From the NCBI RefSeq assembly GCF_025526975.1, contig NW_026515678.1:620001-684000 (forward strand): a DNA stretch of 64,000 nucleotides, written 5' to 3'. The DNA is from Fimicolochytrium jonesii. Lineage: Eukaryota. The translations under genes were made by a program, and so were the position numbers. How positions within the stretch are numbered: position 1 is the stretch's first letter; each line of letters opens with the position of its first letter. The notes below the pieces were generated by a model that did not search any database, was not told the origin of the DNA, and saw only the letters and a program-made list of their open reading frames with translations. Shown in pieces: positions 4,536 to 30,756 of this stretch.

Positions 4536-5624
4536 TGCTGCGCAAACGGTCCAAGAAGCTGTGCGAACGAAGTGATCGACGCTGCGCAATGGCTGTAACT
4601 ACGGCTTTCCAGTGCTACTCCTGGTGCCTCAGAGGTTGACGGTATCGTTCCTTCCACGAACGTTCGTACGCCCCGCTGAGCTCAACTTCTGCGAAATGCG
4701 TCCGATAACAGTGTGCTGCACGTAAAATGAGCCTAGAATGAGGACTGATCCGCTGGCTGGCCTTGAGCCGGCTGCTAGCTAGTGAGTCGGTATGTCTGCG
4801 GTCTCTGTTGTACTGTCGTTCGAAGTGATCACCAACCTACAAGGGAGGAAATTTGCACGAGAATAAGGATATGGATCTGGGGCGAGTCGCGAAAGGTTAG
4901 GGCCTTGGTTGAGCCCGTGGGGTATTGAGTATCGTTCCGACCGGCGTGCGGCGAGGCCAGCTGCAGCGGCAAAGGGAAGGAACGGCGGGATGGCGAGGGG
5001 AACGTAGGGGTGGTTGCGGGGTCGCCGGCTCGCTTTGGTGTTGTTGTTGATGTTGTTGGGGGTTGGGTGTTGAATAGTAAGCAGCTCAGCGATAGTGCGG
5101 GTTGTCCGTGGGAGCCATCGCCATGATTCAATAAAGAATGCGACGTGTTCGCCGCGTCAGCTTCCCTCTTTCCCCTGGCTTGGCTTGATCTGGGCTTTAT
5201 CCGTGGGCTTTATCCCACCCACCGGACATACACCCACGGCGAATAGCTGCTGCGGCCATATATACGACAGGCCATACTTTCTCACCTGGCACTCACTAGC
5301 TCCCCGTCGCTTCTGCTGAGAAGCTCATGTCATGTCTATAGTACAGTCTTATAAGGGGGAAAGGGGAACAATGCGGTTATACTGTGTCCTGTACCATCTT
5401 GTGCCATGTCGAATGCCTTCGCGCTCCAACGTCATACGGCCCGGTGCCAGCGTATCACATAGGTCGTACCCCAAAGCAACAAGCATGGCCGAAGGGCGCT
5501 CTATATAAGGCGGTTGCAGGAACGGACCTTGGGTCACGCTGTGAACTCTTTTTCGGGAGGTGAACAGTCGCCAAGCATTTGCGAATTTCACTGGTGGGGA
5601 CACAGGGGTCAGCGGTAAAGCATC

Positions 5625-8327
5625 ATGGCACTCCGTTCCCGTCAGAATACCGGTGGCGGCCTCTATGACGAGCACAGACTGTCAGTGGACAACTACGATG
5701 GGACGACGACCAGAGAGACGAAACCACTTCTGCCAGGACATGTCGGGTCTCGCCCGAAGGTGCGTGGTCGGCTGTGGCACTTTGCTCGATGAAGGAGGAC
5801 GTGGGCTGAAGTGAAAGATTCTCTTGCCCCGTTAGTCCACGTGGATAGAGTCTCTGGGGAGGTTTTTTGTTTTTGCCAGCATTGCAACCATCTCTTTTCT
5901 GGGATGGAAGACATTTTCGGGAGCCTCCCGAAATTCCCATGGCCGGTAAGAAAGTGAAAAACAAGGTCTTTCAAAAGCGATCACGTCTGATGATACCACC
6001 ATCCCCCAGAGATTACTATTTGATCCATAACGCTCGTGTATATACGGTGGATCGTAGTCTCCCGAATGTGGACGCCTTTGTGGTGAAAGACGGTCGATTT
6101 GTTGATGTTGGACTTTCATCCGAGTTGCTTGACCGGCATCCCTCGGCTGCCCGGTTTGATGGGCAGGGCAAAACCATCATACCCGGACTAATTGATGCTC
6201 ATGGGGTACGGCATCTGTGTGAATTGGCAACAACGAGAATCGAAGGTGTTTTCTCACGAACCTTCCCAGCATCTCCTCGAACAAGGACTGTTCATGTCGA
6301 GAGCCGATGTGAAAAACTCCACAACTCTTGCGCAAGTGCGCAACTCCCTGCTGAAGTACCTGGACGCGCATCCTGAAATCGAAAAGAACGGAGAATGGAT
6401 TTTTGGCAGTGGCTGGGATCAGACGGTGGGGATCATATTTTCCCACCATATTGACCGGCAACGCATTGACCCATATGAATCTAATATATAATCGTCGAAA
6501 CGCAATCAGCTCTGGAGCGAGACCAACTTCGCCTTCCCCAAAGCAACCGACCTCGACGCCCCCACCCGTCTCCAACACATCCCGATCTGTCTCTATCGCG
6601 TCGACTATCACGCCTACTGGCTCAACACCGCCGCTCTCGCCCTCATCCAACCCCATCTTCCCGCCCCCGGCACGCCCATCGACGGCGGAGAGATCGTCCG
6701 CGATGCCGATGGGCATCTCACGGGAGTCTTTGTGGATAATGCGATGGGGTTTGTGGACGCTGCGTTGCCGAAACCGAGTGAGGCGAGATTGAGGGATGCG
6801 TTGAGACTTGCGACGGGGGAGATGGTGAGGTTTGGGTTGACGGGGTTGCATGATGCGGGGGTTACGCCGGAGGGGATTGACTTTTTGAAACGGTCAGTTA
6901 CGGGTATGGCGTTTGGGAGCAATGCCTTCAGGAGCTGAGACGATCATCTCTCAACCATGCAGAGCCGCAGATGAACGCCTAATGCCGATCCGCAACTACA
7001 TCATGATCCGCTGCGAGACACCGGAGTACTGCGGACACCTGGCGCCGAAGTTCAAGAACTATCGTGATCGGTTGACTGTCAATTCCGTGAAGCTTTTCTT
7101 TGATGGCGCCTTGGGTTCTTGGGGCGCTGCGATGATTGAGGTAGATTATGGAATGCTGTTGTCCTCACTGCTGCTGATATAATCTTACCGATTTTGCTAG
7201 CCTTATGCAGGTCTGGATGCATCGCCAATGGTAACGAGGTCATGGCTGTCATCTAACCCCTCTTGCTTGCAGATGATTCTACGAAGAATGGTCTCATGCG
7301 AATGTCCTCCGAACAATTCCGAAGCCTGGCTTACAAGGTATGTTGTCCGCCTGATACATTTCAGGTGATACATACTAACAAGCTCATACGCACATCCAGT
7401 GGGCCAAGAACGTAAGTCTAACCATTGGGGAAGCATTCCTCACGCCCAACCGCTGATAGATTCACACAGGGTTACCAAGTCAATGTACACTGCATCGGCG
7501 ACCGAGCAAACCGAATCGCGTTGGACGGATTTGAAGCGGCCTTTCGTAACCTGAGTCTGACTGCAGATGAAGCAAGGGAACGGAGGATGCGGATTGAGCA
7601 TGCGCAGATCATTGTAGGAACAATGTTTGTGTGGTTATGTGATTTCTGGAATAGGTTGCCTGATTTCTGTGTGTGATGGTTTTCAGGCCCCGGAGGATAT
7701 CGAACGGTTTGCGAAACTGGGGATCATCCCGTCCATGCAACCTACACACGGTATGTTCGGTCTCGCATCTACGTAAACTCATTGATCTCCGGTAACCTAT
7801 GGCTACAAATCCAGCAACAAGCGACATGACCTACGCCGAAACCCGCCTCGGCCCCTCCCGCATCCGTACCGCCTACGCCTGGAAATCCCTCCTCAAAACC
7901 GGCACACCCCTCGCTCTCGGGTCCGATTTCCCGATTGAAGGCGTCAACCCTCTGCTCGGCATCTACGCGGCTGTCACCCGCTTGGATGTGGATGGTGGCT
8001 CTCCGCATGGGAAGGGTGGGTGGTATCCCGGTGAACGGTTGACGGTGGACGAGGCGTTGAGGGGGTTTACGGTGGATGCTGCTCGGGCCGCGTTTCAGGA
8101 AGGGGAGGTAAGTGTGGTGACCTTTGCGTGAGGGTCCCCTACCTTGCAATGCGTGTATTGAACTGCACCGTTTCACTCTTACCCAGCTGGGATCGATCAC
8201 CCCGGGCAAGAAAGCGGATTTTGCGGTATTCGATCGGGATTTCGTTGGAGGCGAGCCGAGCGAGATACTCAAGGCACGGTGCCTCACTACTGTTGTTGGT
8301 GGCGGCGTGGTGTATGGGCAGCTCTGA
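5625..8327 (+). CDS. Amidohydrolase family 3 (YtcJ-like) metallohydrolase with N-terminal transmembrane anchor; about 10 introns
   Basis: Motifs occur in the expected order: [96 protein letters not shown]. Hydrophobic [15 protein letters not shown] in predicted exon 2. TATATAA at ~5502. Confidence 0.9.
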
Positions 8328-8690
8328 AAACGGATCCCCACGCGCACTCTGGGTGCGTTCCTGGATATCTTTATGGTCGCGGCGTATGAACTACTTTAGA
8401 TTCAGCGATTGAAGGCAGCCAGCCAACTACATAGGAGATTTGCAGGTCTTTGAGTGAATGGGGTCGAAGACGCTTGGTACAAGCTATCTCTACGCAGCTA
8501 GAGCGAGGTCGTTTTGATCCTACATCGCGTCCTGGGGATCAAATGGGTCTGCCCAACCCCCTGGAATGTAGTAGGTCGATCCATTCAAATATGAGGTCTT
8601 ATTCAATCGTGCACAGATCGATGCAAATTTCCATCCTTGAGATCAATCGTCCTGATTTAGACACTGAGGTTTGGCGGAACCGCAGGAAAA

Positions 8691-10308
8691 CTATGTTGGG
8701 GCCCCCTTCCGTTTGTTTTTACCGGTCTTTACTTGTCGAGAGAGAGTACTCTCCACGCTTTTAAGAGCTTTTTTGAGTTTTTTAACCTCTATCTTCTGTC
8801 CAAATTTCTCGTCATGATAACCCAACGCTTTGAAGGGCTTCATCTTCTTTGCTGAGAAGAGGCATATGATCCCTGAAGCTATGTCATCTGCGAGATTTTC
8901 GGGCAGTTCTGTGATGTCACACTGTTTTCCCTGGAGCAGAGACTTCAAACCCGTGCATACTCGAATATCTGTTGCTGAACATCAGTTTCTTCTGAGGCAT
9001 TGTGGACTCACCCGCCGCCACAGCATATCTGACCTGCTAGGAGACGTATCTCGTCCTTCGCATCACTTAAAGTATCACGCACCCAGTTCCGAGTGAGATC
9101 GGGTTTAAAACCGTTGTCGTCAAATGTCCCCCTCTCCGTCAAAACCGTCCGAATGGCATTATTGAAATCATTGTCGGTGCGAAGATTTCGCAACCAAGCT
9201 CGGAAGCTTTTCATATCCGGGACCGCCACAGTCTTGAGATCTGCCAATTCCGATGATAGTCTCTCGTCTAGGTCCGCCTGAGGTGAGTACGCCACCATGG
9301 AACTATCAATGTAGCTCTGCATACTCACCGCATTCTTTCCATTCACGGGTAACCTTGGACAAACCTGATCGGAGGTCTCTGATAGGCTTATCCATGGCAC
9401 ATGTCGCGCATAGATGGGTGGTCTTTTTCGCAACGGCATTCTTACATCGTCGAAGATGCTCATCGTTTGAGCTCCTGCATGTGGCATCATCGCAGATGTG
9501 ATGACATTGCCCACAGCTGCCCTTTTCATCCCGCGGCAAGCCGCATATGCCCCGAACTTTTCGATCACTGCCACATACTGTTTTGACACTTCGATTAGTC
9601 GTTCACGTACGATCCTACCACCCAGCCAAATCACGTACCGAGGACCTTGGCACAGCCTCTCCGCGGTCGCTTCCTTTTCAGCACCTCGGTGTTATCTCGT
9701 TGTTCCATTTCATGCACGCTAGACGCAACAGTTGCCTGTGTGTCAGGCGCCGCTGACCCCGCAGATCGGGGAATGTCTCGGTCTTCTACCATTCGCGATT
9801 CCAAGTCGTGTTCACTTTGGAGTGCTTGGCGGGTGTTCGTATACTCCATAACATCACAGGCATCCTCATCTTTCAGTCTTTGCGTTTCAGTTACCTCCGG
9901 GGGCTCCGGCACTGGCACGTGGTCAAGCTGCATGTCTGCCGGCCCCATCATTGTAGATTGAACAACTGGCTCTGTGTCAGGCGCCACTGACATCAGGTTT
10001 TGGTCTTCTACCATTCGTGATTCCAGGTTGTTGTCATTTTGATCCTCATCTTTCAGTTGTTGCGCTCCAGTTTCCTCCCCGGGGGTCGGCATTGGGACGT
10101 TATCAAGCTGCATCTCCGCCGGCCCCGACATGGCAGATTGAGTAAGCTCTGTCTGTCGGTTTTCCACAACTGGCGATCCCGGGCCATTTTCCTCGAATGC
10201 TTCAAGCAAACTGGTGTCATACTTCCCAGAATCGAATGGATCTTCAAGCTCCGGATCTTCAAGCTCCGGACTTATCCTTAGAGGTTTCCTGGTCCTGCAT
10301 TGTAACAA
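8691..10308 (-). CDS. Uncharacterised multi-exon coding region with acidic repeats and a possible Cys-rich segment; either a C-terminal extension of the DUF262/DUF1524 gene or a separate gene
   Basis: Consecutive minus ORFs 9631-10308, 9008-9634 and 8691-8948 with GT...AG intron-like junctions. One splice reading gives CGLPRDEKGSCGQCHHICDDATC...LCATC. The frames could not be joined unambiguously. Confidence 0.4.
9721..10130 (-). repeat. Two imperfect coding repeats of ~55-70 aa
   Basis: GPAEMQLDNVP...LKDED...LESRMVED...APDT and GPADMQLDHVP...LKDED...LESRMVED...APDT in ORF 9631-10308. Confidence 0.8.
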
Positions 10309-12768
10309 CCACGGGCGTTAGGTTGCGCTCAAGTACTGCGTCAAACAGAAACGCTACCTCTGGAATCTCGTCCAGCTCGAGAAAGTCAATTGCATACGCG
10401 TCTCGAATGCTCTGCAGCAAGTAACTATTGTTCTTCTCAAAACTCTCTCTCTTCCAGTGGCGTCCTGTGACCAGATCGCCTTCCTTTGTTTCGACTTCCA
10501 ATTTCAGCACCTTTCTGGTCAGTTCGAAAGGCTGGGCGGCGCCAGTAGAAGTCACTTCATATCCCTTTCTTTTTTCATTCCAAGGCTTATCGCCAAGAGA
10601 CGAATTATGACGGTCCACCAGAAGCGTTAGGTTTCCTAAGCGGTGCACGTGTTTCCGTAAATACTCTCGGTCCGGTTCCCCGTCCAGGCCTATGTAGGAG
10701 ATCAATATTATTGGGGAGAAATAGAACATCCGAGATACATCGCTTGCCTTTATCGCTTTGAGGAACTATATGTTCCAAGGTCACCCTGCCGTAGTCCATG
10801 CCAATATAAGATTTACACCCAGGTTCCTCCTTTAGCAAGTTGCACCGCAATAGAAGGTGCTGTATTGCATATGACTTCGCTCTGTTATATGTATTGCCTC
10901 TGAGAATTTCCGCGAACTTTCTGACATGTTTATCTTCCGCCCCAAGTTCGGGATACCTTGTGAGTCGCGTAAGTTCATGAAACATAATCGTTCAGAGCAG
11001 TCCGGATCCCTTACCAGCGAAACTTTTCTTCTTTAGGCCCTTTCAGGATACAATGCAATACATCATACAGGCGATCTGCGCAGAAGTCGGTCAACTTGTT
11101 TTTCCTTGTATTTTTCGCTGCGGCAACTTGCCAGATGGCAACGGAGCGTTCAAGATTGTACCACATGGGTTCTGCGTCTGGAGAACCCATCTTCGGCAAG
11201 CGGTTCTTGATATGTGCAGCGATGATGAGGCTCCGCCAGAAGTTCCACGGGCGATTGTTGGTGATGTAGAGCATTTCAATGGCCCACCAAGCTCTGCCGG
11301 CTACTTTCTCGTCTGCATTGGAATTTATTTCTTCGATTGCTCGTTTCTTCAATTCTGCGCGAGGTTTTGGGCTCTTCGGTCCCTTCTTCTCATTCAAAAA
11401 AAACTCATCCAGAGTGGTCAAGATACCATGTGCAGCTTTGATATCTGGGAAGAAGGAGGAAAATGTCTCCGACTGATCAACATGGCAAAGAGACTTGATG
11501 AAGATGTGTTGCGGAGAGCCCGGATCTTCCAGGTCGGAATCCAGTGCCAATTTGAAGTTCGGTCTCAGGTCTTTCTGCATTGACATGGGATATCACGTCA
11601 AGAAATGCGTGCGGGTACTCAAACACAGATTTCTCACTCGTACCTTAACAAAATATATCAAACACAAGTGCTCCAAAAGCTCTTTCATGCCTTCGTCACC
11701 CCGATCCTTTCTTGTAGCTTGCCAAATTTTCGCATGCGATTTCTCAGCTGTCGCCGACCCTTTTCTTTTGATTTGAAATAGTTTCTCGGAGAATAAGGCC
11801 CCAAAGTAGTCCACGGCCGTGACGTCGACCCCTCTCGTGTTGAGAGCGCGAAAGGTGCGATACGCAGAATCCAGGTCCCTGACCTCCATTGTCACCATCC
11901 GACAGCTTGTGAAAATGTACTCGGCGACTTCCAGCATTGTCGTCGAACTGGGTGCATCTGATGAAACTGGTGCTCCGTCGTCACCATCGTCACCACCCTC
12001 GTTTGCAACGGCCGGACTCAGCCCCCATTCTTCCTCCAAGTATCTCTTGATTTCGATGCAATTATCTATGATGCGTTTCTGGAATTTGGCATCTAACCGG
12101 TTTCCGTTTTCGACCTCTCCCATGTCAAGAAAATGGTGCATATTGGTCTGAAGAAACGACTCAGGCACCGACATGCAAGCCTCATAAGAGAGCAGGTCGA
12201 TAACTCACCAGCACTTCTGCCCATTTCTTGTCATAGTCTAAGCCTTCCGGATCGTCGTAACACATTCTAAAACAGTTTTCATCATCATCCGGGTCCGTCT
12301 CCACAAACTTTGAATGGGCGTCTTCGTTTCCCTTATCAAGATAACGCAATACAGCCAAAATGAGAATCAATGTCGTAATCCTCTGCTGCCCATCCACTAT
12401 GGAATAACAATCCTGCTGATCTTTCTCATTCCTCCAAAGGACGAGTGCGCCGAGAAAATACGTCGAGTCCTTCTTTGACCTAGTGAAAGCATTCTTGATA
12501 TCTTTAAGAAGCTGGATTACGTGGGGTGCCGTCCAGCAGTATGGTCGTTGGAACTTGGGAACTACCAATCGGTTGCACCTCGGAGCTGTGTGGCCGAAGC
12601 TGATGTTAATTTATTAGCAGGAATCAATCTTGATACACGTCGAAACCTACGATTTCCATCACGAAATAAATGCGACAGAGATGTTTCAAAGACGTCTTTG
12701 AGGGACCCATTCTCGATACGGCTACTGGCTTGAAAGCTTTTTTGGTGTTGCCTCCATCGCTGTCGCAT
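10259..12768 (-). CDS. DUF262 (GmrS/ParB-like) + DUF1524 (His-Me/HNH) fusion, GmrSD/SspE-like nuclease, interrupted by spliceosomal introns
   Basis: DUF262 motifs: VPKFQRPYCW, YFLGALVL, IVDGQQRITTL, AYRTFRALNTRG. DUF1524 motifs: TLEHIVPQ and RLGNLTLLVDRHNSSLGDKPWNEKRKGY. Introns that restore the frame: 12148-12208 (GTGAGT..CAG), 11575-11643 (GTACGA..CAG), 10957-11014 (GTAAGG..AAG), 10690-10738 or -10747 (GT or GC donor..TAG), and probably one at ~12586-12650. Start and stop positions are uncertain. Confidence 0.85.
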
Positions 12769-14054
12769 CAGTGTAGTCCAAAATTAGCGGGAGAAATTCA
12801 TGTGCACATGCAGCAAATTCAAGGTCGAAGGTTCAACGGTGACAAAGGGAGATTACCTAATGAACGCGTCCACCGTGAATGGAGCGAGTTCGCAGCAGAC
12901 TTCACGCTTCCGCCCATCAGCGTAGATGTCGCATCGGTGTCCTACGAAGCGAAGGCCACCGCGAGGTGCCAGTGCTCAGTGATGGAAAGCACTTTCCAAG
13001 CTGATCGTCCATGACCTGAGCCACTTCCTACACGCGTGCACCGTATCTCCTGCCGCGTAACGCCTGAACCGGAAACTTCGACATTCATCGTACAACCAAT
13101 TGCACGTTTGCGCATTGGTGTTGTCCGTGTTTTGCTCAGGCAGATTGGCACTAATCTATCTTCATATCCGTAGTGTGACTTTTCGAATTCCCGGGATTTT
13201 CAATCGCCATGTGATTGCTATCACTCTAGTAATCGATCCTGCCGTTCATACGATTTGGGTTCACCTGAGGAACCAGGATGTCCAAAGGCTGCCAGCCGGA
13301 TCTTTTGACACTACATTCCGACGCCTGCTGCACATTGTCCTTTCATTGGTCCCGCTCTCCGCGACGTTTGACCATTTTCCTCGAATGCTCCTTACAAAAG
13401 TCGGCCAAAGTTCTGACAAGGTGTCCAAATACGTGGCTGTCGTGTTCCTTCAGTCGCAGTCATATACGATAAGTGGGGTCTGCGCTACGCATTCATCTCG
13501 TTCCGAGCTCCTGGGCGAAAGGCGATGGGCCGTCGCAAAAGTTTATCTCGGCTTGCATTCGTTTTGGTTTTTCGAAAGTCATTTCATACTTGGCCAGCTG
13601 TGTGGATGTCTCAACATACGAAGACGGAATTATTGGGGACTACATTTTGGGCAAAACTTTCAGGCGCAAACGACGTTCTGCAATGTATACTAGCATATTT
13701 ACACACGCATGAGCCAACCGACCTGTGCGTTCGATTCCTTTCGGCTACTTCAAGCTGAACGACTTCCTGCAACTTCAAGATTCCCTTGATCTCAAGCCCC
13801 ATGCCGTTTATTGGTTCGCGAGCTATCAAGAACTTATCCGGAATGCTCGCGTTCTGAAATCGATCATGAAAGATATTCGCAACCTGCAAAATTCAAAGTT
13901 GACTTGATGGTGGAAATCTTTATGCTACAGTAGTGGATACAGTCGCTAAACTAAAAAGTGATATATCGACTCTTCCAACTCGTTTCAAATGGATCAAACT
14001 GCTTTCGCTGCCAAGACAAACATGGCATCTGGAATCATCTAGCACATTCTGGCA

Positions 14055-14728
14055 TTAAGTAGCGTCGTCCGCTCGGGCCCAATCGAAAGGGCTAGCGCAG
14101 CCCGGGCAAGTGACGTGATCGCATCCTCGAGTTTTCTCTGCAACGAGGTGGACAAAATACGAACAAGTGATGTACCAAGGTCAGCTCGTCTAAGGTTCAC
14201 GACGGATCGGCCTTCAATCGCGTGACGAGAGCTCCGTAGCCCCTATTCATGGATGGACGCACCGATGAACATGCCACAATTCGGGCATTTGCGGATATCA
14301 GAGGCTCGCAGAAGGAGTTCTCTTTCCCTTGCGGCGCGCTGCTCAGCCTCGACTTTGGCGGGTGCGACTGCGGCTGCTGCTGCCGCCGCTTGGGACGACA
14401 TTCTGGTGCTGGGAGGGCGACACATGGCTTCTTCGGTTTTGACAGGTCTGCAGAAGGCGGACGGAGATGAGGTTTGGAATGACGTCGGGTTCCAACTGGT
14501 GGCCGAGAAGGCGACAGAGATGAGGCTTAGACTTACAACGGCTTCAGCGGTCTGCAGAGACGATGTATCAATCAATGCTTGAGGTTGCTCCGGTTCCAAA
14601 GGCTGCAAAGGCGACGTGGCGGGTGAGGCTGGGCGTGAATCGATGTTGCTCTGTTCAACGCTGTGGGCTTCGTTGCGCTTTAGGCATGTGAGCAGTAAAT
14701 ATGATGTGTGATACGGTTTGAGCGACAA
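14055..14728 (-). CDS. Protein ending in an RBR-type RING2/Rcat domain; 5' exons unresolved
   Basis: Removing intron 14138-14262 (GTGCGT..CAG) gives IRKCPNCGMFIEKTRGCDHVTCPGCASPFDW...stop at 14055. This matches the CPxCxxxIEKxxGCxHxxCxxCxxxFxW Rcat signature. Confidence 0.65.
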
Positions 14729-16334
14729 GGGGGTGGGACATTTCGCTTATCTGGGGTGGAACGGAAACCGGTTTCTGCTCATTTCAAAGGAACGTAAGTG
14801 TGGAGTTGTTCAGAGTCTCGGTTTTAGTTTGTTTTGTAGGGGACGAAGGCGACAAACGGCGTAACCCCCCACAAAGATCCGTGGCCCCCCGCCGACGGCC
14901 TCACATTGATTGCTGTCATAGAATATGGCACGACGGAGACACCGTAGAGCGCAGTCCGGTGAGTCCTTTTGATCTCATTGGTGCCTATGCATTGATTTGT
15001 GGGGCAAATGGGCGACAAACAGGTCTCAGACCTCAACACGTTCAGCGGTCAGTAAAGTTCAGAGCAGGTTTCAACATTGACAGTTTCGACTGACCTCAGA
15101 ATGACGGGCGTGTTAGTCATGCAAGGATCCTCCAACCTGGTTTGGACGCGGTCGGCACTCCCGGTTACCAGGAACGCGGTTTGACAGCGCCGAATTCTGG
15201 AATTCTGGAATTCTGGTTTGACACCATGGCTCATCCTACAATTTCAATTTCCGTCGTTGGGTTCGTTTCGCCAACTGTAACTATCACGTGGCGCTTGCAT
15301 CAAGCATGCGCAGAGCACACATGCCCATTCATCGATTGAAGTGGCATTGTAAAGAAAGGTTCGATATAGATGCTATGCAGCTTGACACTTCAGCGAGCCG
15401 GCTCAGCTTTCAGTTCTGCATGTATACGTAATAATCATGTAGTAAGGAAGGGAGGGGGGGCCTGAGAGAATCTGGTGTCGTCAGAGCGTTCACCGTCGCG
15501 GGGGGGCAAACCGCGGATCAATTTCGGTGAGCCTTGCGCGATGAATGGGGGGGATTCAGGATTGATGTAACATGAGTCCCGTGTGCTACCATCCCAGCTC
15601 ACTGGGTCTATTGGGTGTCTTACGTTCGGGATCCGCGCCCAGACACTGGGAGCGAAAGCCAAATCGCACGGAAGTGCGGAGAGCCCGAGTGCCAGGGGCG
15701 CGCCCACGCTTTGTTGCTGGGAAGCCCACGCTTTGCGGTTGGGAAGCCAAAAGGAGGAGCAAGAACCGGGGGTGCGTGGGCAGCCCAGAGCGCCCGGACT
15801 CCCCCGTCCCCCGTCCTCCCCGTCCGTCCCCCGTCCCAGGAGAATCCTACTGCCGCTCGCCCTCCCTCCCTCCTCGCGACTGGCTGGCTGGCAACACAAA
15901 CTCCATCTCCCGCAGCTACTAGGCAAGCCGATTGTCCGAGCGCTCTTACAACTACCCCAGCCAAACAACGCGGCACAATACGCACCGGAAAACGAGAGAG
16001 ACGAGAGACGAGAGACAAGCGCACTGCGAGTCAGCGGCTCCCGCCGCACTTACTGTATTTACTCCCCTCGCTGTCCCCCAACATACGCACTCGTCGTCAC
16101 TCTTCCACCACCTCAACTTTGCCCTCACGCTCTCGCTACCTACGTTGTACTCGACCTCTCTTGCTGCTGCTTCTACGGCAAGCGATATTTATTCGCCCCC
16201 CTTGCGCTCCGTATAACAAGTCTACAGTCTTTCCGTTCGCTTAGAGCAATATTGATAGTGCTCGCCACTTGGCATATCGTGCATACTCGCTTTCGTTTGT
16301 AAACAGCCCATGGTAGTACTGTTGTCCGCCTCAC

Positions 16335-19110: not shown

Positions 19111-20537
19111 TCAGAGGGTGGTGGAAGTCAGTAAGACCCATACATTCCAAAGCCAGCACTTGAATTCCTCGTGCCGATCATCCACATCTTCGATCATCTT
19201 GAGCTGGACCATGGGCTTCCCTGCAAAGCAGGTACTCACAGGCTCCGCCACGAGAAGACTGTTCCGTACGGGTTCCCGTCTACAAAAAAGAAAAAGAAAG
19301 CAGATGAGCAAATAACATCTCAGAGGGAGGTGTCGAGGATGGGCAAGATCGGCGGATGCTGATCTAACTTGTCCGTCTCTCATGGGGAGAGTGTTAAAGA
19401 GCCATGTCGGCGGATGCTTAGCATCCTCCATCATGGTGTGGTCCGATGAGCCATGTTGGCGGATGTTCCTCGGACTCTTTCCGCCGCCATTTACTCAGAC
19501 TTCCGAAGAGCAACTACACGGACTGTGGCATGCTGAGCCTTGTAGTAAAGGTCGTGCCACACGCGGTTTGTCTTGAGTACCTTCATGCTCGCGATCGGGT
19601 CTGAGCACGAGTCATGGCCTACAAATGCGCGGCCCGGATCCTCCATAAACGCAAGCACGCCGGAGACACTTGAATACATCGTGTTGATGATCATCAAGGC
19701 CTTTGAGAGTACCAGCAACGAGATTCTTGCCCTTCAATCGGTCACGGAATTGGTTCATTTACGGATCAATCCCCTCCTATCCCGGGTACTCAACAGAACA
19801 AGGCCATCCTGCGCCCATTTTTCGAAGAAAGGCTCCCAAGCCGGCGATCTGCGCTTGATTTCAGGTGCTGGTTTTTTCCAACGGCGTTGCAATGCAGAAA
19901 AAAACATAGTTCCAGGTGTGTCTTTGTAAACGTGTTCGTTTCGGAAGTGGGAGCATGCCTTATCCAGGCGATATCGACTGTCGAGATGAAACGTACGGGA
20001 ACTTTCCGAGCTTCATTAAACTTCAAGTAGGGACTAAGGCATTGGTGCGAGGTACGCATGATCTTGCAATATGGTGGGCCTGCCGTGCGTATGGGGAGTG
20101 AGGCAGCGGGCGGTCTCGCATTCCTTCCTCTGGCGCTGACTGAATTTGTTATACGGAAGAACTTCGTCGCACTGTAACACTTGTGTCGTCTCCGGCATAG
20201 TAGTTTGTCTGTGGCATGATGCATTAAGTCGGTTGGTGCTGTCCAAACCAACTAGGAGAACATACTGTCTCTGCTTACCTGGCCGACGGTCGTCTGTGTC
20301 TTGTACAGTGACGACGAAGGCTTCAGCTTCAGCGAGGAAGAAGGCTTCAGCCTGGTACGGGCTTTCGTAATCTTTGTTGTGAGTGAAGACTGAGAGGGCG
20401 GCTGCGTCCTTGATGACTTCATATGGTTCCCATGTAATTAGCGGGAGTGATGGGTGTGGCAGGCATTGCAACGACGAGTTTCTGCAGTGACGGTGGACCG
20501 AGGTCAGTACCAGCCAACTTCCACAATCGCGTGCCAC
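19111..20537 (-). pseudogene. Decayed coding sequence containing a chromodomain C-terminal half
   Basis: TWEPYEVIKDAAALSVF (~20385-20435) resembles TWETHERVKDCAALDDF in the element A chromodomain. It is followed by broken minus-strand ORFs. Confidence 0.35.
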
Positions 20538-20568
20538 TCACACACACACACCTAACCCTAACCCTGCC

Positions 20569-20864
20569 TCACTTACCCGGCAACGACGACTGGAACGGCC
20601 TCTGTACCGGCAAGGCATAAATCAAGGCGTGATGGTCCATCGGCGTGGGACAATCATAAAAGATGTTGCTGATGACGGGAATTAGGAACGCCCGGCGACT
20701 GCTGATAACGGGAAGTAGGAACGCGGCGCCTTTTCCTGATCCCGTTTGCGCGCAATACATAAGATCATAAGGCCTGCGCTCAGAGCGGGGCCTGCGCTCA
20801 GAGCGGGAATCGCAAATCTCTGGATTGGGGTGGGCTTGTTGTAGGATGCCAGCTCCCGTAGCAT
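20569..20864 (-). pseudogene. Fragment of a Ded1/DDX3-like DEAD-box helicase (Q motif + motif I), frameshifted
   Basis: YNKPTPIQRFAIPALSAG and DLMYCAQTGSGKGAAFLLPVIS lie in different frames. Internal duplications: PALSAG twice, and AFLLPVIS/AFLIPVIS. No DEAD or SAT motifs follow. Confidence 0.75.
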
Positions 20865-21418
20865 CCATGCGATACCTCTTCCCCGCCGACGTCGTCGTTA
20901 TCGGACGCCTATACAGAGTGAAAGTCAGTCTCGGTCCAACGACAACCCGAACGAACCAATCGTACTCACCACAGCAAATCTGTGGATTGGGGTGGGCTTG
21001 TTGTAGGACGCGTTCGTAGCTGAACTCATGGGAGGTAGATGGAATGTGTTTTCCTTTTGGGTGGATGGCTTCTGTATCTCGTCTCCCAGCGAGCGCTTTT
21101 ACGGGAGTGTTTGGGTGGTGTGAGGTCGTTTCCGGCCGGCCGTGAGAAACTTCGTGGTGGGAGCCAAGGACTAAGCTGTCGAAAAGTGACAGTCGCAGGC
21201 GGGCTGCGTAAACGCTCGCGGCCTATGCGAAGATCTTGGGTGAGATGCTTTTCCTAACCCACCCGACCCGAACCCAAGGGTGCTTTTGAGAACGGGGTGG
21301 GCTTGTTGTAGGACGTTTCTCATGGCCGCCAACGTCTCCCGTCAAGACGAGCAACCGCGGGGTTGCAGGGCGCTAAGCCGACGATGCCAATGATGATGGT
21401 TCACGTTCGAGTTCGGTT

Positions 21419-24400
21419 TCATCGGCGACTAGGAGTGGAAACGCGTGGTTCACTCTGCGAAAAATTTCTCGCCATGCGCCAAAGGTCGCCGTAATCGTCT
21501 GCACGTCCGTTTAGAGCGTGCTTTGCCCTGACGTATCCGTAGTCAAACTTGGCCGCGTCCTCCTGCTGGACTTTCTCGCCTTGCACCCAGCGCTTGAGCA
21601 GCGGTCTCCAGACTTCGGGCTTACATTTCTCGAGTCGCGAGTGCCTTGTCGTCGCTGATGGAGAGCCACTGGTTGTCTTCTTCTTTAGGTTTCGCGTGCA
21701 GCGGTGTCCATCTTGTAGATCAACACATTGTGTTCCTTGACCTCGCGCTTCCGACCCGTTCTTTGGCATGAAGATTAGCGACTCGCAATTTCTGGGGCTC
21801 TCCCTTCCTGGTGTTCTTCTTCGGCTAGAAGCCCTCTAAGTGCTTTCACGCGCCACGTTTGTAGGAGCAGCAATAATCCTGCGCGCGTTCAACTCCAGCT
21901 TTTCCAGGTATTAGTAGGTATGTGAGAAGCTGAATGACCTCAGTTTTGCCCGTGCGTGCGCGAGAGAAGTCCAGCAGAAGACTTCGTCCCACTTGTTCCT
22001 GCGATAGCGGTAAGGTCATGTTGGGCGGCTTGACCTCTTCCGATTGACATGACGCTTCCGATTCCGGAATGGGATGCAAGTTCTCGGGAGCTTCGACCGC
22101 GCAGAGTAGAGCGGATGGTACTTCCCAATCTCGGCAAGTCGGGAGACGCGCATAGTTGCGGGTGCGGTTCCGGTGGGCGCCTCGACTTGTAATGTGGACT
22201 TGTGCGCAGAGTACGAAAGGTCGTAACGGAATTTGTTCTCTTGGAGAACTTTGAGGTCCCGACGATCAAAAGCCCCACCTCCAAACGGCTCACTGCGACG
22301 GGAGCGCGATGCACATCTTTCGTAAACCCGAGCGCACCTGAGCGAATCGTGCGGACCCTGTGAATAATCATGAACTTTTTAAGGAACCGACGTATCGGTG
22401 AGCGTGTCAGCGATGAACTGAATGCTTGTGGCGGTAAAGTGCTCCTGCAATTTTTTGGCATGGCCCTTGTATCCGCGGAGTGCAGAATCTAGCTCCTGCG
22501 CATCTTGCTCGTTGGCTCCTTCGTCGAAAGATTGTTTGATTCCGTTCATCAAAGCGCAAGTCACTTGAAGTTCGACAGGGTTGTAGTGGGAGTCTCGCCG
22601 GCACCGTCGACCGTCTTGGGCATATCGTCCTTATGGACGTCGCCCGCCTCCGGAGCCTTGGTGGGAGTCTCATCGGCCGTCTCGACCATCTTGGGCACCT
22701 TGGGCCTCTCGAGCTCACCGAACGTCGTGTTGTGCTTAGGCTTGATCACGAGGCCCCGAATAACCATGTCGTAGGAGCCGTTCGAATGTTCGACCTCGTC
22801 CAAACCGTTGAAACCGGGAACTTCCATGAGCAATCTTTATAAGGAAGTCACTCGGACAAGAGTCGGTTGAAAGGATCTCAGGTTGTGTTGCTCGGCGGAG
22901 TTAGACTTCCCGAAACTTGAAAGACGAACGCGGCCCTTTTGCCCCTGCTAGGCTCCTTGCGGCAATGTACCGTGTGGCAGTTTTGTCGGGATACCGAGCT
23001 TGTTCACCGCGCTACACACCGTAGGTCTGGCGGCGACTTACTTCAGCGGGCGCATTATACGTCTCGTCGAGGGGTCCAAAACTCACGCTCCCCAGAGTGG
23101 TTTCCGTGCAAGCTCCAAGCCGGAAAATTGCGTTGCGCGCGGAATACAACAAGTGATACCAGAATTTATGGGTCCTCAGAATGCTCAAATCGCCGCACAA
23201 TCAGCAGTCCAATTCCGGGACCACTGACAGCAACCAATGCCGATTGACAACTGTCATAAATCCTGGGCTTCCCGAGTTCGTGGTCCGAACCGCGTTGATG
23301 ATCATGTACTTCTTCTGTGCACCGACGTTCCCGTTCAGCGGTCCTGCAACGAACCGTGTTGTCTTGCCATACTGCTCTCGGAGCTTCTAGGCGTGATCAG
23401 CGTATCCATCGGGGACTCCGAAGTCGGCGTCTTCCAGTTTTTTCTCGTCTTGACCTTCCGAGTGTCGATGGAAAGCCTTGATCATGTCCAATATATGCAC
23501 GTGGCTTGCAGGTGTGCGAGGATCTTTGTACAGCCTTTCGTAGCCGCCTGGAACATCTAGAACCCTCTCCCTTCTCTGTGAGTGCTCTCCAGTCTTCGGG
23601 AAGTTGTGGGCAAGCTTGAGCGTCCGAGCCCAGCGCTCTTGCAGGACTTCAGCAGCTAGCATCTGCTCATCATGGCTGTTGCTGTACACGTAGTTGCTCA
23701 GGAAATGATAACCTGTTTCGGACGGGCGGAACTGCTTCCTCCAGCTGATGATGCGGAAACGGGTTGACCTTCAGGATGAGTTTTCTTCTGTTGCTTGACC
23801 ACAGGGGTCAGTCCTCGCGAGTCGCCGCTCAAAACAAGCTTAGGATCGAAGGAGGCCACGCCGACGGTGCCGAGAGTGATGGGTTCGAGTTCGCCCAAAA
23901 AGTGTTTTCCCGAATGCAGCTGCCACGGCGAGGGGGTCAGGGGTTCCGGCATTTGCTTCTCCAGCAGAGACTCGAACACAGAGTCATCGAGAAATCTGTT
24001 CAACTCTTTAGGAGCCTCGACGGCCCGAAGTACCTGAAGAAGTTGTTGATTTCAAAGGACTTACTTTACTGGGCTGAAGTTCATCAATGCGGCCAAGAAT
24101 GCGGCTCGCTTCTCCTCGAGAACATGGTATAGAGCAAGTCTCCGAAATCCTGGGGTTCGGGCGAACAGCGAACTTGTATTCCACTGATCGCTGCACGCTT
24201 TGACTAATTTGTGATTCAATTTGCTGATGCGTGTGCCGACAAGCCGCTCGACCGCCTTTTCATTCACCGCGAATTCGATGTGAACTTTGGGGATGATGCG
24301 CTAATTTCCGTATGGTCTATTCCGACTGCGAGTGATGCTGCCCAAAATTTGACCATTCCCTCATGCGTCGCAAATTATTTTCGGCCGGAGAGGGACGTCG

Positions 24401-25434: not shown

Positions 25435-26732
25435 CGGGACTGCACTGAATCTCCTGAATCTTGTTCATCCAGCTGAACGTCCTACGCTCAAAGGGAGGTT
25501 AGATGCTTGAAACCATTTAGCGTGGACAGTAACCAAGGGTAACAGTCTCATAGCGGACTTGGCATTCCTGAGAGCATCCATCATTGACTAGCGATAGGTC
25601 CAGCCAATCGAAGACGGCTCAGCGAAGTTCACTTTTACATGCGCCTGGCCCACCAAAATATGCCTCGCCCACTATTCCATTATGTAGGAACAAGGATTCC
25701 AAGAACCTACCCGGAAACGTTAGCCTTCCACAGCGCAGAGTGATGTAGCCGGTCAAGGGCAGCCGGACGTTGAGGTGTCGGCTTTGAGACCTGAGACGAT
25801 GTTCAAATTGATGTTTATTGGCGGTTGAAGACCGGTAGATTTAGGTGTCCGCTGTTGTTGGGTGTAGATTGAGTTTCCGCTGTTGTTTTGGGCTTGCGTC
25901 GGCAAGAAGAGTTGTCCAGGTGAAGGACAAACATGTGAGGAACGAGGAGGGAGTTCGGCTGCCCGCTTTGGCTTTTATAGAGGGCGGTTTCAGAGACGGA
26001 GAAGAAAAGGTGCGGAGGAGCAAACCCTGTCCTCCGTTCTGTCATACCACGGGTCCAGAGGGCTCTGAGTCCAGCGGTTTCACAGCGATCGCAGCGATCG
26101 AACCCTTCGACTCTCCGCACACAATCGATTGACAGTGTACACGTCACGCGTCCGAGTTCTGAACTGTCGGAGGTGTCGTCGCTGTCAATCTTTCACGAGC
26201 AACGACTCAATCGCCGCGCAACTGCACTCAACATAGGTACGCTGCATCTTGAGTGACCCAATGCGCGAGAGACACCGGGTGAATCATGGGTGTAGACGGT
26301 TCACAATAGACCCACATGTCCCACCGCGAATGCATCGAGGGGTATGCGAGACGGATGGACGACAGGTACTGGCGCAATCCTGGGCGGATGATGGGCGTCC
26401 GTGGAGTCGTTGAGCGGGTGATGGAGCAGTCATGCCTATGAGGCGAAGCCGACAAAATTTCTGCCCTCACTTGAACGCAGGAGTCAATGCCTTACTCCAC
26501 AATGCGCATGTTCCACCTGCATCTGTTTCTTGAACGGCACTTCCTGGTTCTGAAGTTTCGAGTGCTCGGGTTCTCGGTTCTCATCCAACGTGTGATTTAC
26601 ACGAAAAAGGTATATCAGATGGAACAAAGGCAATTAGGTTGCTATGTAATAGACAGCCCACAAGAGAAGAAGCCAGCGAGCCGGGACTAAAGGAAGTTCT
26701 AAAGGGAGTTCTAACAAGTCTAGTGATCTCTA

Positions 26733-29700
26733 TTACTGCCGCTCATGTTGAAACATGTCCATTCCATATACACCTGATGGCCGCGCATTTCCCACATTCT
26801 GCTGTTGTTGCGCGGCAGTAGCCGGCCCCGACGCTGCTTCCGGCGCGTTCGGATCGCGGATGGGAGTCCTCGAGTCAACGCCTGGTGGGGCCTGGACGGT
26901 GACTGGCAAGGCGAACTCGTGATGTTGGGGGTAACCTGCCCCTGGGTAAGGTGGATGCACGTGGCGGTCGTAGTAGTGGGGTGGGAGACGGGGAGAGGGT
27001 TGTTGGGACTGCTGCTGTTGCAGCGATGGTTGGTTGTGATGGTGTTGTGCTTGTTGCTGTGGGTGGATATGTTGCGTCTGCTGCTGTTGTTGCTGCTGGG
27101 AGGCCTCAAGATGCTGTTTCGGTATATGGTGTTGTTCCTGCTGTGGTTGTGGTTGCTGATGACTTGGCGATGCTCGGGCTTGCTGGGTACCTGGAGTGGC
27201 GGGGTTCGAAACCTATTATAGTGTGGAGACGCCATGTCAGTCATCTGTTGAAAACGAGGGAGCAGCCCATCGACATGCTCATCTTACCTGCGAACCCTGC
27301 CTTTGTTGTTGGCTTTCCATAGATCTGATATTCGGCGCAATCAGTTCGCTGAGACTAAACCCATTGGGATAGTACGACGAACGAGAGCCATGGGTGCCCG
27401 GCCCGCCGAACGGGTTCGGTGGCTGATGCTGATGCTGTGCTTGTACGTACTGCTGTTGACTAACATGTCCCGCGCTCAGAGCTGCAGTTTCGTTAGCATC
27501 AGGATGCTGGTGTTGCTGTTGTGATGGGTGATGGTGCGCTTGTGGGTGTGCATGTTGTTGTGACGGATCGAAGCGATGATCTAAATGGTGCGGATGTGGT
27601 TGATGTTGGTAAGGGTGGGGGTGCGACGGTTGCCGGTCCTGCATGTGTCCTGGCGCATGGTACATGTTCGGATCATGGGCATGACCTCCATATCCCACCG
27701 GCGGCCCGCTCCACGATTGATGCGGTATCGGGTGCTGCATTCCTGCAGGTGCCGGCCACGTTACCGGTTTGGTGTCCGGGGTCGCTGTGTCTGGAGGAGG
27801 AACGCGGTACCTAGGCGTGGGCGCCGTCCCAGGCAATTGCTCGCTCGACGACGGGGTCTCTGCAGCGACCGAATCCTCTTTGGCCCTCGCCTTTGTCTTG
27901 TCGCGTGGAGTAGCGCTAGTAGCTTTAGCAGCGGCGGCCCTAGCAGCAGCCACAACGGCCTTCGTGGCCTCCTCCTTTGCGATCAAGACCCGTTTCCGAC
28001 GCTTGCGCCCGTCCTCAGGTGCCACCCAATTGGTATTCACGGTGTATAATCCATTTGGGCCTCGGATGAGCCGTCCACGGTCAACAGCTTTCTTCAATGA
28101 TTGAGAGGCAGAGGGGCGGAAGTGCTCAGGCAGATCCGGGATGTTATCGGCCATCCATTGGAAGATGTTTTTCGGCTTGGATCCAGTGCGGTCCCGCATT
28201 TCCCCTACCGCCAGAGTGATCATATCTTCGTAACTACCGAGTGCACTTGTCATTCGCGGCCGTGTTTGTCTCGAGATTCCGCTGATGCTGCCCGCCCCGC
28301 TTCCCACCGCCGGCGATGTTGGCGTTGACCCGGATCGTGATCGCACTCGGGGCGTGCCCAGTGGTTCGCCAGTAGCACCAGGGCCGCATGTGGATATCCG
28401 GGTACTTTGACTGTTTGTCTCATCGAGTAGTACAGCAGGGGCAACCACCGAACGAGGACGCGCCGAAAAAGCGAGCATATCACTCGGCTTCAAATCCTGT
28501 GGGTTTTGCCCAAGATACCGAGCCGTCTCCGGGTAGCGCAAGGCTACTTGCAAAAGAACTACACTCAGTACATTATGAGGACAACGCTGTAGTGACGCGT
28601 ACATCTAAAACGTCAAAAACAGACCAGCGAGGTGAGGTGAGCATTCCGTGTTTGCGGCAACATCGAATGCAATGTCAATGACGTACATTTTGGAATCCCC
28701 TTGAGCATGACGAGCATGTTTTCCGCAGAAGAATCTTCACGACATCCGACGTGGTCTCGGGCATCTTGAGAACGGAACCTTGCTGACCTTCCAGACCCAT
28801 TCCCGATCCCGCTACGTCCATTTCCGGGGCGTCGAGCCTGTTCTCTTGCAGGGGTGTGAGACAGGTCAGGCACCGCCGGATATCGCTCGGAATTACCGGT
28901 GCCACCCATCCCGGCTCCTTAAGACGAGGTATATCTGCACGCCTTGGCTTATTGGGGCGACCCACAGGCTTCGTGGGATCAAATGGAGGAGCGAACGACC
29001 AATGAGCATCCACTACAGGTACGACGTTTTCCACCATCCTTCGCGCAGTGTCCGTTCCCTCACACTGGTGGCAAAACCAATACGCAGAGTACGTGTCCGC
29101 GATGTCGTTTGGAATAGGTAGCGGGGTATGACACATTTGGTGATAGGGCGCATCGCAGCCGTCGCAGATGACAATGCGGTCCTCCACGTTAGATTCTGCA
29201 CCCGCGCATACGCTGCAAAAAACGTTGGCATCCAGAGCGAGCGGGCTGCAGAAGTGTGACCGTCGTCCAACCACGTTCATCACGTCGCTACCGCCGCCGA
29301 GCTGGTGCCCCGCATCTGTTGGTGCTGGCGAGACGCGACTTTCCCTACCGCTCGATCCCTCCTCCACTTTGACAGAGGGTTCACTCGGTGGACCGTGATC
29401 CTCATTGCCGTCCTCCATGCCATCGACATATCCTCCGCCCTGCGGTCCTTCGTGGCCAGACTCCCCAGCGTTTGCATGAGGGTGCCCTATTTCAGGTATC
29501 TCGAAAGCCCCATCTGTAACTTCTCCCGGCGTCTCGACAGCGCCATTGTGATTCCCTTCGGCATGTCCGGCCTCTTGAAGCACCTCGGTAGCTGAGACCT
29601 GAGAGTTTAAGGTCATGTAAGCTTCGAACTCCCATTGAAATGGCTTTAGCCTCCCTCCAAACTTGCTACTTGCGCCAAAACTCCTACCTTTGCCGAATAG

Positions 29701-30056
29701 CTATTTCCAGTGTGGTCCAAAGATCGCTTCCGCTTTGCGTTCACCCCATCGAGATCTCTGAAGATGTTCGAACTCGGATGAATAGCAACATCTATCTCGA
29801 ACTCGCCGTCAGCATCGTATTCCCCTGGTAGCGACGATGATTGCTCCCGTGCTGCTCTAATATCATCAGCTAAGGCCGGAGAAGGCGCTTGCTGCACCGG
29901 GGATCTGGGCGCCTCCGACGGGAGGGCGCGAAAAAGGGGGTTGCCTTCGGTATGATCCGAGTCTGTGTGGGGCGGAGTCGAGGGAATGCCACCCTCCGAT
30001 GGCAGCATCGCCGGTACACCTGTTGGTGCGGGTATGAATGTGCTCGATTCAGCCAT
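26733..30056 (-). CDS. Chromatin protein with PHD finger, additional Cys pairs, linker histone H1/H5 (H15) globular domain and His/Gln-rich C-terminus
   Basis: PHD: CSVC...IVICDGCDAPYHQMC...WFCHQC. H15: SYEDMITLAVGEMRDRTGSKPKNIFQWM...SLKKAVDRGRLIR...GLYTV. GT-AG introns near 29.6-29.7 kb, ~28.6 kb and ~27.2-27.3 kb restore the frame to ...MDMFQHERQ*. Confidence 0.85.
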
Positions 30057-30756
30057 GTGATGTCCTTTGTCCGTCCAGCTGGGGATAAAAGGCGCATGTA
30101 AGAAAGGTGTTTCGTCGCCGAAAGCAATCTTGACGGCATACCGGAGCAATAAGAGATCAAGCCGTCGCCAAGAACGACGCAAGACCACAATGTGAACGTT
30201 TGTGAGAAGTTCGCTTGTTTCTCTGTATGTCTATGTATGAGCCGCTCCCTCCCAAACGTTCAGCTAGGGTCCTAGCAATATGTCAATGGGCTATACTGGG
30301 GCGCCGTCACCATCGGAGTGCCAGTGCCAACGCGACGAGACTGAAGCTACCACCCGTCGGGGCTGGATGATGATATAGTGAGGGCCGAAAGCGTTCTCTT
30401 GTAGATGATCAATACCATCACCAACGCTGTGAGGATGGAAAACGCAGCTTGCAAGTTGGAACGGCCAAAAGGAATGGAAATTCGGAGGGAGGAGCCGCAC
30501 TTGTCACGTGACCGAACACAACGCGTCCTGCCGTGGGTCGGAGTTCGCCTTCCTGCATTGCGTCGAGATACGTAAGAGGCGTGCTATTGAAATTATGCCG
30601 AATAACAAAACAAAAACAAAAATGGAAAATGCGTGGGTGTGGGGAAACAGAAACAAGAAGCCTATAAGGCGTGGGTGAAATGAGGTCCAGTGAAGTGAAG
30701 TTCATCAGGCTCGGGGGACAGCGATGACCGTCTCTAAACCGTCAAATTCACCAGAT

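Follow-up and report, generated by a model that had tools for sequence, protein, structure and literature searches.

The stretch analysed here, a 64,000-nt window of the genome of Fimicolochytrium jonesii (all coordinates are positions in this window), carries on its minus strand a gene that genuinely belongs to the GmrSD superfamily; it is domesticated, falls in a small clade of zoosporic fungi and has a function predicted from its sequence. Six coding blocks in shifting frames run from 12768 to 10259, and removal of five predicted introns of 49-69 nt gives, in the gene model built from the DNA, one open frame of 732-741 aa. The profile comparison proposed in an earlier reading of the letters alone, hereafter the sequence-only reading, bears out both halves of the protein. 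Four of the six exons match Pfam on the predicted chain, in the order GmrSD_N (exon 2, expectation value (E) 6e-27; exon 3, E 4e-5) and then GmrSD_C (exon 5, E 0.004; exon 6, E 3.7e-10). NCBIfam returned 0 matches for the 11 proteins compared with it.

The motifs listed in the sequence-only reading are intact and in place: exon 2 carries QRPYCW and DGQQR, exon 3 FRALNTRG, exon 5 EHIVPQ, and exon 6 both GNL and HNS. The protein has the QR, DGQQR and FxxxN motifs of GmrS and the E/D-H-N-N set of GmrD, and all catalytic and signature residues are kept (D104-G-Q-Q-R108, F264, N268, G271, E581, H582, N612 and N621). The accessory GmrD motifs NxxFxxKK and WxxxxIxxRxxxL retain K632, W671 and L683, with substitutions N to D626, F to W629 and R to N679.

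Exon 1 (12651..12768) begins with the ATG at 12768, holds the start of the DUF262/GmrS domain and aligns to the N-termini of homologues from Paraphysoderma; its start and the following intron are identical in the public model P0071. Intron 1 (12586..12650; 65 nt, GT-AG, with a branch-like site) scores about 4 bits above the alternative 12646-12600 when compared with the homologue profile. Exon 2 (12209..12585) contains QRPYCW and, at about 12394-12380, the DGQQR motif of nucleoside triphosphate (NTP) hydrolysis. Intron 2 in its in-frame form (12148..12208; 61 nt) ends in a CAG acceptor after a pyrimidine run, the in-frame acceptors 12160, 12148 and 12115 being indistinguishable by homology. 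Exon 3 (11644..12147), scoring 27 bits against the Paraphysoderma profile, covers the second half of DUF262 with the FxxxNxRG motif and an acidic insertion. Intron 3 (11575..11643; 69 nt) contains an in-frame stop. Exon 4 (11015..11574) encodes a helical linker matching Paraphysoderma proteins only; it has no Pfam match, and taken by itself in HHalign it aligns weakly (probability 1.8). Intron 4 (10957..11014; 58 nt, GT-AG) uses an AAG acceptor. Exon 5 (10739..10956; 16 bits against the Paraphysoderma profile) opens the DUF1524/GmrD domain, with EHIVPQ at 10775-10758. Intron 5 (10690..10738) measures 49 nt with the GT donor 10738 or 58 nt with a GC donor at 10747; the former fits the homologues about 4 bits better. 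Exon 6 (10259..10689) supplies GNL, HNS, the second Asn of the HNH site and the end of DUF1524, and reaches an in-frame stop at 10261-10259 unless it is spliced upstream of that stop.

The sequence-only reading had argued for spliceosomal introns from the way in which each of them restores the frame. Its four named junctions are plausible, and a fifth intron was added at 12650-12586, but the argument itself is weak as proof, because each break offers many GT/GC..AG pairs, 40-130 nt long, that would keep the chain in frame (21, 17, 11 and 25 at breaks 2-5). In codon-shuffled exons, a consensus donor and acceptor 45-75 nt apart in the needed phase occur in 5-9% per break, which for the five breaks jointly amounts to 2e-7 to 5e-6, for a pattern defined with knowledge of these introns. 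Each of the six exons also scores above its own shuffles against a profile made from Paraphysoderma only, one of 100 shuffles scoring as high for exon 1 and none of 100 for exons 2-6. The introns of a neighbouring amidohydrolase gene, taken from a list of candidates, appear similarly sized.

The gene had been taken to end at 10259; this is probably not its end, and it may continue to about 8691. The added tail would probably consist of an acidic linker, a stretch resembling a nuclear localization signal (NLS) and two Cys/His fingers, as in Paraphysoderma, whose proteins share the order nuclease, acidic linker, Cys/His fingers and basic tail. A candidate sixth intron (10295..10397) has a branch-like site, a CAG acceptor at 10295 and three possible donors. 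Donor 10397 has the best consensus and joins the nuclease to the tail but deletes a conserved aromatic residue; donor 10346, of weak consensus, also makes this junction; donor 10357 keeps the frame, and the protein then ends at 10259. Probable exon 7 (9639..10294, within an open frame 10317-9631) encodes an acidic, internally repeated linker with a basic NLS-like end; it has no match to any family, Pfam included, and joins exon 8 in frame across an intron (9578..9638; 61 nt) with consensus donor, branch site and CAG acceptor. Probable exon 8 (9329..9577) encodes two Cys/His zinc-finger-like units spaced like those of the Paraphysoderma tails. The shared Cys pattern, drawn with both in view, occurs in one of 1355 open reading frames (ORFs) of the window, namely exon 8, and in only three of 241 proteins, all from Paraphysoderma; comparisons of exon 8 with the Paraphysoderma tails by hidden Markov model, phmmer and HHalign were not significant. 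The single-sequence structure model of exon 8 is poor (predicted local distance difference test score, pLDDT, 56), and a search of viral folds with this poor model returned nothing at E 0.001, a result that speaks neither for nor against a giant-virus origin of the finger. A possible further part (8691..9328), drawn from splice signals and without homology support, would comprise introns at 9328-9268 and 9033-8975 and exons at 9267-9034 and 8974-8691, the last with a basic end. The full model with tail has 1164-1181 aa and no internal stop. In the same region, a 15-nt tandem duplication (10245-10275, minus strand) spans the stop codon at 10259; two imperfect internal repeats lie within the acidic exon 7 (9760-10140, minus strand).

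The closest relatives are three full-length paralogues of Paraphysoderma sedebokerense (Blastocladiomycota), filed as hypothetical proteins (KAI9136013.1, KAI9136012.1 and KAI9135912.1). They fall in the same clade, are collinear with the F. jonesii protein over about 630 residues and have the same tail order, yet they are only 24-27% identical to it and number three copies. Among 228 collected proteins, the Paraphysoderma protein P0088 matches the spliced model with 157 bits over 661 columns, the next protein reaching 108 bits. The middle region matches the three paralogues at E 1.5e-6, 3.8e-6 and 0.017, the best of the other proteins (238 in all) being at E 0.74. P0088 and P0230, two of the Paraphysoderma paralogues, have adjacent accession numbers and are each placed on a 16.5 kb contig, which suggests a tandem pair on a short contig.

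Phylogenetic analysis places the four fungal proteins together. In a FastTree analysis of 178 rows (at least 450 aa, with both motifs) they are monophyletic with support 99, with a warning from the tool of long branches meeting there, and under the mixture model LG+C20 they form one clade with 100/100 support. This second, unrooted tree had 31 rows, the 23 nearest and eight spread named loci; algal sequences were not among them. The rows among which the fungal clade is nested (support 96/98) are bacterial, archaeal or of unstated source, and no donor is singled out. Since the four fungal proteins form one clade inside prokaryotic diversity, an old transfer is indicated rather than contamination. 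Horizontal acquisition, as first proposed, is therefore upheld by the tree as regards a prokaryotic origin; a lone recent gain is not, the clade being shared with Blastocladiomycota.

Searches beyond this clade recovered distant relatives only, in prokaryote genomes (80 of 382 kept), metagenomes (best 80 of 339) and viral contigs (2 of 46). None of those best 80 metagenome contigs held an intron-like or fungal-clade locus, and three of the 80 had two ORF pieces, each longer than 100 aa. A word-index search with exon 2 gave 70 matches among 249 candidates, none named as eukaryotic; exon 4 gave none among 379 candidates and no fungal relative; it was the full HMMER search that brought up P0088. 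Around five bacterial loci, from a collection of 82 loci, 36 ORFs were scanned: two genes stand alone amid housekeeping genes, two lie in type I restriction-modification (RM) loci and one lies beside methylases, and no dnd or ssp phosphorothioate (PT) genes were seen among these ORFs. The neighbours of L001, a locus of the viral collection, look bacterial or prophage; there, at 4941-11681, a GmrSD-DUF4268 gene lies immediately upstream of C5 and N6 methylases. In four Hyphomonadaceae-type genomes (L005, L008, L016 and L027) the ORFs around a GmrSD-like gene are similarly arranged; the gene lies amid housekeeping genes, according to a Pfam scan of L005 only, an unusual place for a defence gene.

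With the GmrSD type IV family, as described in the available text of PMC4619093, the F. jonesii protein has in common the two fused domains, QR, DGQQR, FxxxN, E-H-N-N and the helical linker. It differs in its spliceosomal introns, its fungal host, the probable acidic, NLS-like and zinc-finger tail, and third and fourth GmrD motifs that are partly altered. Its first description as GmrSD/SspE-like holds for the GmrSD architecture with its catalytic residues and less well for SspE: judged by profile and modelled fold, the protein is closer to Orf5/HEC-06 of PADLOC and to DndI than to SspE or BrxU. The top-ranked profiles in PADLOC are Orf5 (PDLC02686, E 5e-45 for P0088) and HEC-06 (E 9e-24 for the N-terminal part). 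Per exon, the HEC-06 profile gives E 9e-24 to 2.5e-7 and nothing on exons 4-5, and Orf5 scores higher for full-length homologues. HEC-06 is a single-gene defence needing DGQQR and EH, both kept here; it sits in bacterial Hma islands, has low identity to the F. jonesii protein, and no target mark is named for it in the available text (10.1101/2024.01.29.577857). Defence by HEC-06 (10.1101/2024.01.29.577857) and by DndI (PMC11662687) is described in the accessible parts of these sources as requiring the equivalent motif residues.

A structure model was built from a 90-row alignment for P0088, as a stand-in for the F. jonesii protein (pLDDT 74; predicted template modelling score 0.72). Its fold ranks DndI (PDB 9JFL) best, with E 1e-12 and a template modelling (TM) score of 0.54 by target, followed by SspE and then BrxU. 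DndI of Salmonella Cerro 87, an NTPase and nickase (PMC11662687, available in part), is thus the best PDB match by homologue fold as well as by sequence (exon 2, E 3e-8). DndI needs phosphorothioation by IscS-DndBCDE to spare self DNA, and such genes are not seen in the window. SspE (PDB 6JIV, 7DRS) and BrxU (PDB 7P9K) have the same domain pair but match the P0088 model less well (TM 0.16-0.32 for full-length chains; BrxU E 4e-3). The sspABCD and bacteriophage exclusion (BREX) contexts of these two are absent from the window, and the RLFDS motif of BrxU (10.1101/2024.01.29.577857, in the part available) is absent from the spliced model.

What the protein does can be proposed tentatively, at somewhat less than an even chance: a resident, intron-split GmrSD-family gene, likely acquired from a prokaryote long ago, would encode a nuclease that acts alone under the control of NTP and cuts modified DNA of foreign origin, with giant-virus DNA as the predicted target. 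By analogy with DndI, BrxU and HEC-06, the protein would act as a dimer whose HNH domain is gated by DUF262, the domain that would bind and hydrolyse NTP. From its anatomy, the acidic, NLS-like and zinc-finger tail might serve nuclear delivery and help in binding DNA or the trigger. The nuclease would then cut foreign DNA bearing base modifications absent from the fungus. A stand-alone, modification-dependent mode appears likeliest because no partner was found in the window, the scanned bacterial relatives do not lie beside PT genes and two of these five stand alone. The absence of partner methylase or ssp genes, already remarked on in the sequence-only reading, was confirmed: none of the 50 large window ORFs scanned matches a methylase, Hsd, dnd or ssp gene in Pfam, and tblastn with five bacterial methylase and Hsd proteins found no window match at E 0.01. 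In Spizellomyces, a related chytrid, 5-methylcytosine (5mC) marks transposons and N6-methyladenine (6mA) is high on expressed genes (PMC12695648, in part). The target mark should therefore be foreign or the enzyme restrained: in view of host biology, the trigger would be a mark other than 5mC or 6mA, or cutting would be tightly restrained. As to viruses, F. jonesii JEL569 has a giant-virus capsid gene, and in Allomyces 6mA is reduced across integrated giant-virus regions, as reported in the available text of PMC13533422. The maintenance of three paralogues with full motifs in a second phylum counts in favour of the proposed function.

Several observations weigh against it. The viral link draws only on the role of the family and the history of the host, and DndI, the best structural match, cuts unmarked DNA, the opposite logic. 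The distribution is patchy, because a full HMMER search of 1.84 billion representatives found no close orthologue: the top match was the gene's own public model and the next reached only 70 bits. That public model splices intron 2 to the GAG acceptor at 12117, and because of this acceptor it stops after 172 aa; annotated proteins of at least 327 aa that match exon 4 number 0 among the 379 candidates. Full-length expression is in some doubt, the full-length mRNA being predicted from the DNA. The junction with the tail requires a weak donor or the loss of a conserved residue, and the terminal branch of the F. jonesii protein is long (2.1). Conservation was scored over 47 columns shared by at least 70% of 174 non-fungal rows, the same rows that define the consensus. 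Of these columns the F. jonesii protein keeps 36 and has 11 changed; the non-fungal median is 43 and only 4% score as low, while the Paraphysoderma proteins keep 37-39. Four of the changes are private to F. jonesii, the residues being kept in Paraphysoderma: K/R to G281, N to D626, R to N679 and the loss of a Trp at the junction of intron 5. The changed columns would fit fast evolution or early decay alike.

Decay is unlikely, yet the most serious of the other explanations. The gene would be decaying or mostly non-productive, once functional but now with intron 2 mis-spliced to give a 172-aa half-domain and with a frame shift near 10260-10295 that has disconnected the tail. The truncated public model, the long branch, the altered columns and donor 10357, if used, would all agree with this, as would the GC content at third codon positions (0.54, toward the low side of the 0.47-0.75 of 13 neighbouring segments, and not diagnostic). 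Set against them are exons free of internal stops and frameshifts over 2.2 kb, or 3.5 kb with the tail, the retention of every catalytic residue, and six core exons that still match Paraphysoderma; moreover, the truncating acceptor is GAG, whereas the in-frame CAG follows a pyrimidine run.

Exaptation is only slightly less likely than decay. Here an active NTP-gated nuclease would serve the host itself and not act against invaders: it might control transposons or chromatin, process DNA or take part in programmed cell death, as the probable eukaryote-style tail and the location amid housekeeping genes might suggest. The 5mC on Spizellomyces transposons (PMC12695648) also speaks for this reading, as does the cleavage by BrxU of a range of modified DNAs with any common nucleotide, according to the available text of PMC8565348, and for another antiphage family in eukaryotes exaptation has been left open (10.64898/2026.09.30.754977, in part). 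Patchiness, fast divergence and the duplication in Paraphysoderma would fit conflict genes better than housekeeping genes.

It is improbable that the enzyme follows the logic of DndI, with a host mark such as 6mA stimulating NTP hydrolysis and freeing it from self DNA, which would leave under-marked viral DNA to be nicked. In favour, DndI gives the best PDB match by both structure and sequence, and low 6mA over integrated giant viruses in Allomyces (PMC13533422) and high 6mA in Spizellomyces (PMC12695648), each source in its available part, would suit such a scheme. DndI and SspE, however, sense backbone sulfur and not 6mA, and the position of their PT-sensing Tyr (DndI Y25, SspE Y30) is occupied by Phe, still aromatic, in F. 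jonesii and all three Paraphysoderma proteins. Host 6mA lies on expressed genes, so that much self DNA would be unmarked, and no PT genes lie beside the bacterial relatives that were scanned. That the gene is a bacterial contaminant, or was inserted very recently and acquired frameshifts by chance, is largely refuted and barely credible: relatives other than the three are prokaryotic or of unstated source and local GC is 0.48 against 0.50-0.61 nearby, but five consensus introns, fungal neighbours, an 801 kb contig and a fungal sister group confirm the resident eukaryotic gene that the sequence-only reading had argued for.

The host is a spizellomycetalean chytrid, and the gene lies on a public contig. 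By Pfam, 50 large ORFs scanned in the window include CCDC47, an amidohydrolase, velvet, a helicase, linker histone, a PHD finger, glyoxal oxidase and long terminal repeat (LTR) elements. In the upstream neighbour, at 13600-14746 (minus strand), a Cys-rich stretch without a Pfam match resembles by eye the IBR/RING part of an RBR ligase. A multi-exon helicase gene at 20034-22488 (minus strand) has weak AAA_12 and DEAD matches and a weak Stc1-like zinc-finger match at its 3' end; Stc1 connects RNA interference with heterochromatin. One or more large genes at 26720-30230 (minus strand) combine a linker-histone H1/H5 domain with a PHD finger. LTR retroelements form a dense cluster at 38900-63500, with at least four Ty3/gypsy-type gag or pol sets on both strands and one of copia type, several of them broken by stops.

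GmrSD homologues have been noted in three eukaryotic genomes, with Chlorella, Coccomyxa and Thalassiosira named (Machnicka 2015, PMC4619093); the available text gives eukaryotic members only for diatoms, green algae and Heterolobosea and does not mention fungi. A survey of His-Me finger nucleases counts 263 eukaryotic sequences in the DUF1524 group and mentions homologues in Agaricomycetes that belong to a different, extracellular subgroup (PMC5714182, in part). In the accessible portion of a review, RM enzymes are undocumented in eukaryotes save in one case (PMC11249213), and the available part of the Tiamat preprint does not mention GmrSD. Literature searches, whose coverage lay outside subscription journals, found, among the papers listed, no report of a fungal two-domain GmrSD. 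Since the public annotation shows only 172 aa, the full gene is hidden there.

A 2026 paper on the giant viruses of zoosporic fungi asks, in its available text, which defences fungi use against them (PMC13533422). It is possible, though doubtful, that zoosporic fungi possess a nuclear-encoded GmrSD restriction-type defence, gained from prokaryotes before chytrids and blastoclads parted or soon after they began to do so, equipped with introns, NLS and zinc fingers, and destroying Mycodnaviridae DNA according to its modification state. With its motifs intact and its gene bearing introns, the GmrSD clade of these two zoosporic phyla offers a concrete candidate for fungal defence against giant viruses, and its protein could be a new reader of modified DNA.

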